Source of the DNA: a virus
Taxonomy: Duplodnaviria > Heunggongvirae > Uroviricota > Caudoviricetes
IMG/VR virus record: IMGVR_UViG_2548876939_000010
Direction: 5' to 3' (one strand)
Length of the DNA: 2,378 nucleotides
A program made the translations under genes and the position numbers. Below, one piece after another: positions 1 through 1,984 of the stretch. The notes below the pieces were generated by a model, which made no database searches, was not told the DNA's origin, and worked only from the letters and a program-made list of their open reading frames with translations. Every line of letters starts with the position of its first letter. Within the stretch, counting starts at the first letter, position 1.

Positions 1-231
1 TCAGGAGTGATTTTCATTGTTCAACCGCCCCGCCCGCTTCGTCTTACGATATTCATCATAAACTTTGGGATCATACTGAAGCTCCCCGCCAGATGCCTCC
101 TGTAGACGCATCGCGCGACCTTCGGGAACTAAATCCCCTTTCCAGCTATAAAGCGAAGCCAAACGAATACCTGCTGCTTGTGCAAGTTTTGTTTTTGAAC
201 CGAAATACAAAAGAGCGTCAGTTTTAAGCAT
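1..231 (-). CDS. dicC: DicC, small Cro-like regulator (76 aa) of the prophage division-control switch
   Basis: Complete minus-strand ORF: ATG is the complement of 229-231, stop TGA is the complement of 1-3. The translation MLKTDALLYFGSKTKLAQAAGIRLASLYSWKGDL... matches E. coli DicC as I recall it. A Shine-Dalgarno AAGGTG (complement of 238-243) lies 6 nt upstream of the ATG. It is divergent from dicA, as in lambdoid immunity regions. Confidence 0.9.
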   Translation of the reverse strand: MLKTDALLYFGSKTKLAQAAGIRLASLYSWKGDLVPEGRAMRLQEASGGELQYDPKVYDEYRKTKRAGRLNNENHS

Positions 232-245
232 TTAAAACACCTTTA

Positions 246-265
246 TTGTTAGCCATGACTAACAA
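246..265. promoter_or_regulatory. Operator-like inverted repeat TTGTTAG-CCATGA-CTAACAA in the dicC-dicA intergenic region (candidate DicA/DicC operator)
   Basis: Seen directly: 7-bp perfect arms (246-252 and 259-265) around a 6-bp centre. It shares the core TGTTAGCCATG with the sites at 757-772 and 795-808 and overlaps the -10/start region of the putative dicC promoter. Confidence 0.5.
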
Positions 266-292
266 AATAGATGTTAACAAAAACATAGTCAA
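264..292 (-). promoter_or_regulatory. Putative sigma70-type promoter for dicC
   Basis: Read on the minus strand: TTGACT (complement of 287-292), a 17-nt spacer, then TATTTT (complement of 264-269). The predicted transcript start sits inside the operator-like palindrome and is followed by the dicC Shine-Dalgarno and ATG. Motif match only; not experimentally anchored. Confidence 0.4.
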
Positions 293-314
293 TACGATTT
301 AGCATTAGCTAACT

Positions 315-722
315 ATGGAAACAAAAAATTTAACTATCGGCGAACGCATTAGGTATCGTCGGAAAAACCTCAAACACACCCAAAGGTCTCTTGCTAAAGC
401 CCTGAAAATCTCCCATGTGTCTGTATCACAATGGGAACGGGATGATAGTGAACCTACAGGGAAGAACCTTTTTGCCCTCAGCAAAGTATTGCAATGCTCA
501 CCAACATGGATTCTATTTGGCGATGAAGACAAGCAACCAACACCACCTGTTGAGAAGCCAGTTGCCTTATCCCCCAAAGAACTAGAGCTCCTTGAGCTGT
601 TTAATGCACTGCCAGAATCAGAACAGGATACCCAGCTCGCCGAAATGCGAGCTCGAGTAAAAAACTTCAATAAACTCTTTGAAGAATTACTAAAAGCCCG
701 TCAGCGGACAAATAAAAGATAA
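315..722 (+). CDS. dicA: DicA, HTH (XRE/cI-like) repressor of the dicB operon, 135 aa
   Basis: ORF 315-722 translates to METKNLTIGERIRYRRKNLKHTQRSLAKALKISHVSVSQWERDD..., with a classic N-terminal helix-turn-helix signature (QRSLAKALKISHVSVSQWE). It matches E. coli DicA as I recall it in length and sequence. No alternative in-frame start preserves the HTH. Confidence 0.92.
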   Translation: METKNLTIGERIRYRRKNLKHTQRSLAKALKISHVSVSQWERDDSEPTGKNLFALSKVLQCSPTWILFGDEDKQPTPPVEKPVALSPKELELLELFNALPESEQDTQLAEMRARVKNFNKLFEELLKARQRTNKR

Positions 723-782: not shown

Positions 783-811
783 TTGACCTATATGTTAGCC
801 ATGGCTAATCT
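783..811 (+). promoter_or_regulatory. Putative dicB-operon promoter with operator in the spacer
   Basis: TTGACC at 783-788 (5/6 match to the -35 consensus), a 17-nt spacer, then TAATCT at 806-811 (a weak -10, 3/6). The perfect palindrome at 795-808 lies in the spacer and -10, the expected layout for a repressor-controlled promoter. The -10 assignment is uncertain. Confidence 0.35.
795..808. promoter_or_regulatory. Perfect 14-bp palindrome TTAGCCATGGCTAA (candidate DicA operator at the dicB-operon promoter)
   Basis: Seen directly: the sequence at 795-808 equals its own reverse complement and is preceded by TG, giving the TGTTAGCCATG core shared with 246-265. It sits 81 nt upstream of the ydfA start. 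Confidence 0.5.
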
Positions 812-1763: not shown

Positions 1764-1816
1764 ATTCTGGTGACATTTGGCGGTATCAGTTTTACTCCGT
1801 GACTGCTCTGCCGCCC
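1764..1816 (+). ncRNA. dicF: DicF small regulatory RNA (about 53 nt; antisense inhibitor of ftsZ translation)
   Basis: The sequence ATTCTGGTGACATTTGGCGGTATCAGTTTTACTCCGTGACTGCTCTGCCGCCC followed by a TTTTTT run is near-identical to DicF RNA as I recall it, with at most a couple of substitutions. It lies between ydfC and dicB, as in the K-12 operon. The ends are defined by processing and termination, so the boundaries are approximate to a few nt. Confidence 0.85.
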
Positions 1817-1822: not shown

Positions 1823-1827
1823 AAAAG

Positions 1828-1984
1828 TGAATTTTGTGATGCGGTGAATGCGGCTCAGCGCACGCGGAACAGTTAAATCGGTAAAGCGGTCATTTGCTGA
1901 GTAACGAGAATGCTCTGTATCCGGCGTTAATTGTTAACTGGTTAACGTCACCTGGAGGCACCAGGCACCGCATCACAAAATTCA
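1828..1984 (+). repeat. Long-range 19-bp perfect inverted repeat (arms 1828-1846 and 1966-1984) bracketing the dicF-dicB spacer; candidate RNase III-type duplex
   Basis: Seen directly: TGAATTTTGTGATGCGGTG (1828-1846) is the exact reverse complement of CACCGCATCACAAAATTCA (1966-1984). In RNA it extends to 21 bp with a G-U and an A-U pair (1826-1827 with 1985-1986). The upstream arm starts 6 nt after the DicF T-run; the downstream arm ends 5 nt before the dicB Shine-Dalgarno. Confidence 0.6.

Follow-up and report, generated by a model that had tools for sequence, protein, structure and literature searches.

With high confidence, we identify the 20-nt palindrome TTGTTAGCCATGACTAACAA, which lies between the divergent genes dicC (Cro-like) and dicA (HTH repressor), as the operator Oc of a Qin-type immunity region in which DicA represses dicC, DicC represses dicA and the circuit is bistable. 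A preliminary description of this 2,378-nucleotide stretch of DNA (hereafter the window) had arrived at the same reading from the letters alone. The reading is correct but already known: the literature has reportedly described the operator, the way it overlaps the dicC promoter, its binding by DicA and the DicA/DicC switch since 1986-1988, in the papers of Bejar et al. of 1986 and 1988, and tests followed in 2012, 2020, 2023 and 2024. The sequence-only inference was thus accurate, with little weight as a discovery. The comparison of 16 related loci presented here adds the operator bases that are under constraint, a middle site that is not a conserved operator, and a dicA-proximal TTAG-N6-CTAA element that coincides with the mapped dicA start. 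DicB and DicF, toxic inhibitors of cell division, are under the control of this locus, and knowing its real sites would help the engineering and modelling of the switch.

The window consists of a Qin-type lambdoid prophage immunity-like region followed by the dicB operon (Table 1). Matches were present in 4,744 of 5,426 complete E. coli genomes, where the genes are annotated as dicC and dicA. Strain ECO2947 is ∼100% identical to the window over positions 1-1800, whereas over positions 1800-2378 (dicB/ydfD) the identity to both ECO2947 and K-12 drops to 72-84%; this downstream part is a divergent allele, unrelated to Oc. Compared with K-12 MG1655, 80 of the 83 intergenic bases are the same. The three differences are C253 for T and G257 for A, both in the operator centre, and A266 for G, in the dicC -10 element. 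DicA of the window is 99.3% identical to K-12 DicA, the sole difference being D43 for G43. In a phage record from E. coli ECOR13, PhiR42_1, the dicC-dicA module is 99.3% identical to positions 1-730 of the window, and its genes are annotated there as Cro and cI.

Table 1. Features of the window in order of position (position 1 is the first nucleotide).
Feature	Position	Strand	Description and basis
dicC CDS	1..231	-	76 aa, Cro-like regulator; ORF list, Pfam P22_Cro E=1.7e-11, E. coli genome annotation
dicC 5' leader, inferred	232..257	-	∼26 nt; AAGGTG Shine-Dalgarno-like before ATG
Operator Oc, TTGTTAGCCATGACTAACAA	246..265	.	DicA (and DicC) site; binding evidence from K-12 ortholog
dicC -10	264..269	-	TATTTT (K-12 TATCTT); promoter scan, agrees with 5'RACE start
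Second palindrome, ATGTT-N6-AACAT	271..286	.	in dicC promoter spacer; probable Om, candidate site only
dicC -35	287..292	-	TTGACT; promoter scan; 1.77 bits per column in 16 relatives, TTGATC in three
Third operator-like site, GATTTAGCATTAGCTAACTA	296..315	.	core TTAG-N6-CTAA 299-312, over dicA -10 and start; motif search
dicA promoter core	300..312	+	-10-like TAGCAT 300-305; start A312, 3-nt leader; no good -35
dicA CDS	315..722	+	135 aa repressor; ORF list, Pfam HTH_3 E=1e-15
Upstream operator copy, ATGTTAGCCATAACATACAA	757..776	.	repeat family D2; 758-773 is a weaker copy, 81% identical to 247-262
dicB-operon promoter	783..811	+	TTGACC 783-788, 17 nt, TAATCT 806-811; hexamers read from sequence
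Operator copy, ATGTTAGCCATGGCTAATCT	792..811		between/over the dicB-promoter hexamers; repeat family D2 94%, motif searches
DicF RNA	1765-1816		Rfam RF00039, 77 bits
ydfA, ydfB, ydfC, dicB, ydfD			also in window; ORF list and matching E. coli annotation

The two arms of the operator are complementary at 9 of 10 positions around a dyad at 255/256, with a single mismatch (C253 versus A258). The sequence is identical to K-12 Oc, TTGTTAGTCATAACTAACAA, at 18 of 20 positions, and both differences fall within the central 6 bp. Of the other loci fetched, 13 have the exact 20-mer of the window. When the 2378-nt window was shuffled with its dinucleotides preserved, 8% of the shuffles (164 of 2,000) contained a 20-nt palindrome pairing at 9 or more of 10 positions, and the promoter scan returned a total of 2 matches versus 3.6 expected, fewer than in shuffles; neither the palindrome alone nor the promoter match alone is therefore statistically exceptional in a 2.4-kb window. 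What takes the palindrome beyond chance is the recurrence of its motif within the window. Searching with TGTTAGCCATGGCTAACA and allowing up to 3 mismatches gave 2 matches (247-264 and 793-810) versus 0.00 expected, while the core TTAG-N6-CTAA matched 3 times (249, 299 and 795) versus 0.02 expected, a count of 3 being reached in 0 of 200 shuffles.

The preliminary description had read a minus-strand dicC promoter, TTGACT-17-TATTTT, and the same elements were recovered by the independent promoter scan (TTGACT, 292→287; 17-nt spacer; TATTTT, 269→264; 9 of 12 matches). In K-12, 5'RACE located the dicC start exactly 11 nt downstream of the -11 A, and Oc overlaps that -10 element (PMC3441716). As the -11 A here is the complement of T268, the same relation predicts a dicC start at ∼257 on this variant, so that Oc would cover about -8 to +12 and its left half would fall in the transcribed dicC leader. 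The palindrome had been said to lie over the -10 and the start of dicC; it covers the last two bases of the -10, and the predicted start sits beside the dyad. On the transcribed strand the base at 257 is a pyrimidine (C in the window, T in K-12), an unusual start, and the true start may therefore be one base off.

The K-12 20-mer was named Oc by Yun et al. 2012 (PMC3441716), whose experiments addressed its function directly. Multicopy clones of the region were viable only with point mutations in Oc, which indicated titration of DicA (PMC3441716). Placed before an unrelated reporter, Oc conferred DicA-dependent repression in vivo; repression through the isolated site was brought back by plasmid-borne DicA, and one A→C change abolished DicA-dependent repression and binding (PMC3441716). 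That published mutant is TTGTTAGTCATAACTCACAA (CTAACAA→CTCACAA), and the corresponding base of the window, A261, is the intact A, as in all 16 relatives. An EMSA gave a DicA-dependent fragment shift with crude extract, the only preparation with which binding in vitro was shown, owing to the insolubility of the protein (PMC3441716). When dicA fell tenfold, dicC rose 700-fold; the dicA promoter was silent without DicA and regained activity with DicA in trans (PMC3441716). The DicA site at dicC was also recovered by Reg-Seq, as a gold-standard repressor site (PMC7567609). No DicA footprint at Oc was found in the literature surveyed, and the publications on single-target regulators and on RacR hold no site-level information on DicA.

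On the side of DicC, its overexpression lowers dicA (PMC6915034). In a 2024 preprint, the top DicC ChIP-seq peak lies at the dicC promoter and overlaps the known DicA site, a second site is found across dicA, on its other side, and the ChIP motif is palindromic, TT(A/C/T)G...C(G/A/T)AA (PMC11430063). At the resolution of ChIP-seq, the three intergenic sites cannot be told apart as targets of DicC. Spontaneous switching depends on DicC, and Ragunathan and Vanderpool 2023 termed DicA/DicC a functional bistable switch on genetic evidence (PMC10448788). The proposal that DicA, DicC or both act at 246-265 to shut off dicC has thus been borne out for the K-12 ortholog (PMC3441716, PMC7567609, PMC11430063), and the immunity-like bistability that it predicted has genetic backing there (PMC10448788). 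Start mapping, binding and reporter experiments have in substance been done on that ortholog, and none of them refutes the reading. The K-12 results probably carry over to the variant in the window, with its C253, G257 and A266.

We compared 16 non-redundant loci (DicA identity 58-100%), chosen from 166 that were gathered with DicA and a Serratia homolog as scan queries. The scan of genome contigs gave 6 loci only; the diversity came from two scans of viral contigs, the second seeded with the Serratia homolog. The alignment of all 16 loci is gapless between the dicA ATG and the far end of Oc. Operator positions 249, 251, 252 and 259-262 are invariant in 16 of 16 loci, as is the TTAG-N6-CTAA core, and the pair 248-263 is complementary in 15; in the variable centre, the pairs 253-258 and 254-257 are complementary in 11 and 8 loci, respectively. 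The dicC -10 pattern TAnnnT is fixed throughout (T and A at -12/-11, positions 269 and 268; T at -7, position 264). Among 35 close variants, the left flank (237-246) and positions 253, 254, 257 and 258 carry substitutions, and 247-252 and 259-263 carry none. Both operator positions that differ from K-12, 253 and 257, are polymorphic among natural variants, and 13 of the 16 loci of the wider family have C253, making it commoner than the K-12 base. Across relatives the half-sites are conserved, the centre varies freely and the geometry is fixed, as in lambdoid immunity-region operators. Such a pattern would be expected if a dimer recognized the two outer half-sites and put up with changes in between, and it suggests direct reading of the outer half-sites but not of the centre.

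In relatives, the layout of the two operator copies (757-776 and 792-811) is kept. They flank or overlap a second early promoter under repressor control, as with OR plus OL in lambdoid phages; in K-12, dicBp is repressed 22-fold by DicA (PMC10448788).

A third site, missed in the preliminary description, lies on the dicA side of the intergenic region. Its core (299-312) has the sequence and spacing of that in Oc, is invariant in 16 of 16 loci, and no other intergenic block is as well conserved (1.83 bits per column). In K-12, dRNA-seq placed the dicA TSS 3 nt upstream of the ATG (PMC4681348 Table S3), and the start region is identical in the window, which gives the start A312 and the -10 TAGCAT (300-305). 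The core therefore covers exactly the -10 and start of dicA, mirroring Oc on the dicC start. No acceptable dicA -35 was seen in the window sequence, and K-12 has no consensus dicA promoter either (PMC3441716). The naming logic of the K-12 sites and the layout of P22 indicate that 296-315 is probably Oa. It fits the DicC ChIP motif TTnG...CnAA, and we hypothesize that 299-312 is a DicC site that shuts off dicA; part of its conservation may come from promoter function alone.

The second palindrome, which had been put forward as a possible auxiliary site, is indeed present at 271-286, and it is the proposed role that finds no support in chance expectation, spacing, conservation or the published result for Om. 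It is probably Om, if c, m and a in the K-12 names stand for dicC-side, middle and dicA-side and the layout is that of P22. As an auxiliary site it would be filled by DicA cooperatively once Oc is occupied, like OR2 of lambda or P22, would aid repression of dicC and would place DicA near -33 of the dicA promoter, for activation. We regard this role as improbable. Its position does resemble that of OR2 in P22 (centre 36.5 nt from the repressor ATG, versus 34.5 in a P22-like phage), it lies 23 bp from Oc centre to centre, and it holds one copy each of the half-site words TGTTA and TAACA. Against this, its half-sites are 4 bp closer than those of Oc (TGTT-N6-AACA versus TGTT-N10-AACA), and the invariant TTAG-N6-CTAA core is absent from it, the motif search having matched the window at 249, 299 and 795 only. 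Such a palindrome is expected by chance: shuffled windows hold 2.5 perfect 5-N6-5 palindromes each, and 13% of shuffles of the 83-nt intergenic region hold one, or 70% if any spacer of 0-10 is permitted. Nor is the dyad kept in the 16 relatives, where the arm pairs are complementary in 12, 5, 13, 7 and 13 loci (the weakest being 272-285, in 5, and 274-283, in 7), with no compensating double changes among the 16, and where the arms, at 1.23 bits, are among the least conserved intergenic columns. DicA, with 135 aa, also lacks a C-terminal domain of the LexA/CI type for pairwise cooperativity, Pfam detecting only HTH-type DNA-binding domains in it, all in the N-terminal half; DicA might still cooperate by some means other than a CI/C2/LexA-type domain. 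Finally, Om and Oa, each tested alone in vivo, did not bind DicA (data not shown in PMC3441716), a result that, coming from an isolated site, is still compatible with cooperative binding. Our own reading of 271-286 is a decayed OR2.

In the mechanism that we propose, a DicA dimer would bind the outer half-sites TGTTAG and CTAACA of Oc, the central 6 bp not being read base by base. As Oc would cover -8 to +12 of the dicC promoter, bound DicA would exclude RNA polymerase and silence dicC, and the copies at 757-776 and 792-811 would act likewise at the dicB-operon promoter. Occupancy of Oc would also be needed for transcription of dicA, with its weak -10 (TAGCAT) and no -35. Upon loss of DicA, DicC would be made, bind the intergenic region and repress dicA, and two stable states would result.

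How occupancy of Oc could serve dicA allows two answers, which may be weighed together. The starts of dicC (∼257) and dicA (312) are divergent and 55 bp apart, and the dicC -35 (287-292) lies to the right of the place expected for a dicA -35 (∼277-282). With starts so close, the polymerase footprints would overlap and the promoters compete, and we infer that the 'activation' of dicA by DicA is at least partly relief of this competition. Alternatively, DicA at Oc, centred near -56.5 of the dicA start, might activate dicA through direct contact with RNA polymerase, in a class I-type arrangement. This is possible, if somewhat doubtful. It would fit the inactivity of the dicA promoter without DicA and its recovery with DicA in trans (PMC3441716), the lack of a recognisable -35, and the precedent of lambda CI, which Yun et al. 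2012 cite (PMC3441716). However, with footprints that overlap almost completely, silencing the strong dicC promoter would by itself be enough to free dicA; CI or C2 at OR2 acts from -42, not from a centre at -56.5, and no positive-control mutants have been reported.

The identity of the protein that acts at Oc, and of the element itself, leaves much less room. Were Oc mainly a DicC site, the effects of DicA on dicC would be indirect; the strongest DicC ChIP peak overlaps Oc and its motif TTnG...CnAA matches the core (PMC11430063), but repression through isolated Oc depends on dicA, is restored by plasmid DicA and is lost with one base change, and dicC rises 700-fold when dicA falls (PMC3441716), all of which makes this account very improbable. 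Lambdoid repressors and Cro proteins use the same operators, so binding of DicC is no argument against binding of DicA. That the palindrome arose by chance, or serves as an RNA hairpin in the leader of dicC, is hardly conceivable. The frequency of such palindromes in shuffled windows is in favour of this account, but the motif recurs at the dicB promoter, the half-sites do not vary among the 16 diverged loci and the mutational evidence in the literature supports a protein-binding role (PMC3441716). A chance palindrome was rejected on the recurrence and the conservation, and a leader hairpin on the position of the dicC start at the dyad, with which only one arm is transcribed.

Among known systems, Oc of K-12 Qin is the same element, in the same place between dicC and dicA, with the same -35 and the same relation to the -10 and start. 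The immC region of P22 likewise has divergent repressor (c2) and cro genes ∼80 bp apart. The operator centres lie 57.5, 34.5 and 10.5 nt from the repressor ATG in a P22-like phage and 59.5, 36.5 and 9.5 nt in the window, and the P22-like phage has an identical AGTCAA (cro-side -35) and an identical ACTATG at the repressor start. The P22 operators are known as OR1, OR2 and OR3, names reportedly used by Poteete et al. 1980. Judged by position, Oc is the counterpart of OR1, 271-286 of OR2 and 296-315 of OR3. The half-sites differ, being TTAG/CTAA with 6 central bp in the window and of the TAAAG/CTTTA type with 4 central bp in the P22-like phage. Unlike P22 C2, the 135-aa DicA lacks a RecA-cleavable C-terminal domain, and the middle site of the window appears to have decayed. 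DicA has been described as lacking a cleavable C-terminal part, and induction of the Qin type uses an antirepressor (Rem), not cleavage, unlike in P22 (PMC10448788).

The likeness to OR/PR/PRM of lambda lies in a repressor that occupies the lytic-side promoter and on which its own transcript, leaderless or nearly so, depends, in a Cro-like protein that represses the repressor gene, and in a bistable outcome. In contrast to lambda, the dicC and dicA promoters overlap, with starts only 55 bp apart, Oc lies near -56.5 of the dicA start and not at -42, and only one of the three dic intergenic sites binds the repressor when tested alone (PMC3441716).

Tentatively, the asymmetry of the switch might come from the part of the half-site that each protein reads, DicA the outer TG/CA and DicC only the inner TTAG...CTAA core. 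On this account DicA would need TGTTAG...CTAACA and thus occupy only sites of the Oc type (Oc and the dicB-promoter copies), while DicC, needing the inner core only, would also occupy 299-312. If this rather unlikely idea were true, the switch would be built from two operators in mirror image, Oc at the start of dicC and Oa at that of dicA, the site between them having decayed, unlike the three operators of graded affinity in lambda and P22.

Residues 7-71 of DicA align to the N-terminal domain of P22 C2 (PDB 1adr, 2r1j and 3jxb; E ∼1e-19), with DicA His34 opposite C2 Asn32. Three loci (L094, L167 and L161) have Asp for His34 together with a symmetric G.C→A.T change at operator positions 248/263, a hint, in line with that idea, that specificity has been reset at these outer positions. 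The co-variation between the DicA recognition helix and the operator is a hint only, since a single lineage probably accounts for the three loci and some dicB-promoter copies depart from the pattern: those of L006 (His34) also have A at the 248/263-type position, and L167 has C. A further locus, L168, is asymmetric at Oc and, as an apparent hybrid, hints at the same. Its left half-site is changed and the helix-turn-helix region of its DicC (LPSVYKW) resembles that of the L094/L167/L161 group, whereas its right half-site and its DicA match the main type, as if the operator contained a recombination joint.

A third operator-like site lies at the start of dicA and shares with Oc, the palindromic operator over the dicC promoter, the same half-site core at equal spacing. 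This core was unchanged in all 16 of the diverged, non-redundant loci encoding DicA relatives (58-100% DicA identity), the highest conservation of any intergenic block. The site covers both the dicA -10 element, TAGCAT (300-305), and the start mapped in K-12, A312, which leaves a 3-nt leader. It is probably the published 'Oa' of the K-12 dicC-dicA region and a candidate site for the Cro-like protein DicC.

Repeated elements located in the window
Feature	Position	Description
Third operator-like site, GATTTAGCATTAGCTAACTA	296-315 (core 299-312)	TTAG-N6-CTAA
Further operator copy	757-776	5' of TTGACC-17-TAATCT
Further operator copy	792-811	overlaps the -10 of TTGACC-17-TAATCT
Inverted repeat, longest in the window	1823-1846 and 1966-1989	arms of 24 nt, 92% complementary, 119 nt between arms

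The divergent starts of dicC (about 257) and dicA (312) are only 55 bp apart and their -35 regions are crossed, so that use of one promoter should rule out use of the other. Such exclusion would be a simple way to explain the dependence of dicA on DicA other than by direct activation.

Two more operator copies bracket TTGACC-17-TAATCT, the predicted promoter of the ydfA-dicB operon, with the second copy overlapping its -10. This two-copy layout of operator and promoter was found again 3' of dicA in most relatives.

Three of the loci (L094, L167 and L161) carry a symmetric G.C to A.T change in both Oc half-sites, at the equivalents of window positions 248 and 263, accompanied by His34 to Asp in the DicA recognition helix (residue 34 aligns with Asn32 of P22 C2) and by a -35 of TTGATC instead of TTGACT. 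Operator specificity may have been re-set in these loci, which probably represent one lineage. In a further locus, L168, compared over the equivalent of window 228-317 and the flanking genes, similarity to this Asp34 group is seen in the left half-site of Oc and in the helix-turn-helix region of DicC (LPSVYKW); its right half-site and its DicA belong to the main type. L168 looks like a hybrid locus, and this mixture of types suggests a recombination joint within the operator.

Another locus, L003 (JAIIUG010000151.1, 2521 bp), is a contig that had been binned into a 'Collinsella sp.' metagenome-assembled genome. Its encoded DicA is 100% identical to that of the window and its intergenic region is of enterobacterial type. 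The contig is almost certainly a piece of an E. coli prophage placed in the wrong bin.

At the dicF-dicB end, positions 1800-2378 (dicB and ydfD) show 72-84% identity to K-12 and to the E. coli strain ECO2947, the latter otherwise ~100% identical to the window; near-identity holds throughout the sequence 5' of 1800, DicF (1765-1816) included. The dicB and ydfD genes here are a divergent allele, and the region is a mosaic with its joint immediately past the DicF terminator. Directly after DicF begins the left arm of the inverted repeat, whose right arm stops 13 nt 5' of the dicB ATG; in the dicF-dicB transcript the two arms might pair over this distance into an RNA stem.
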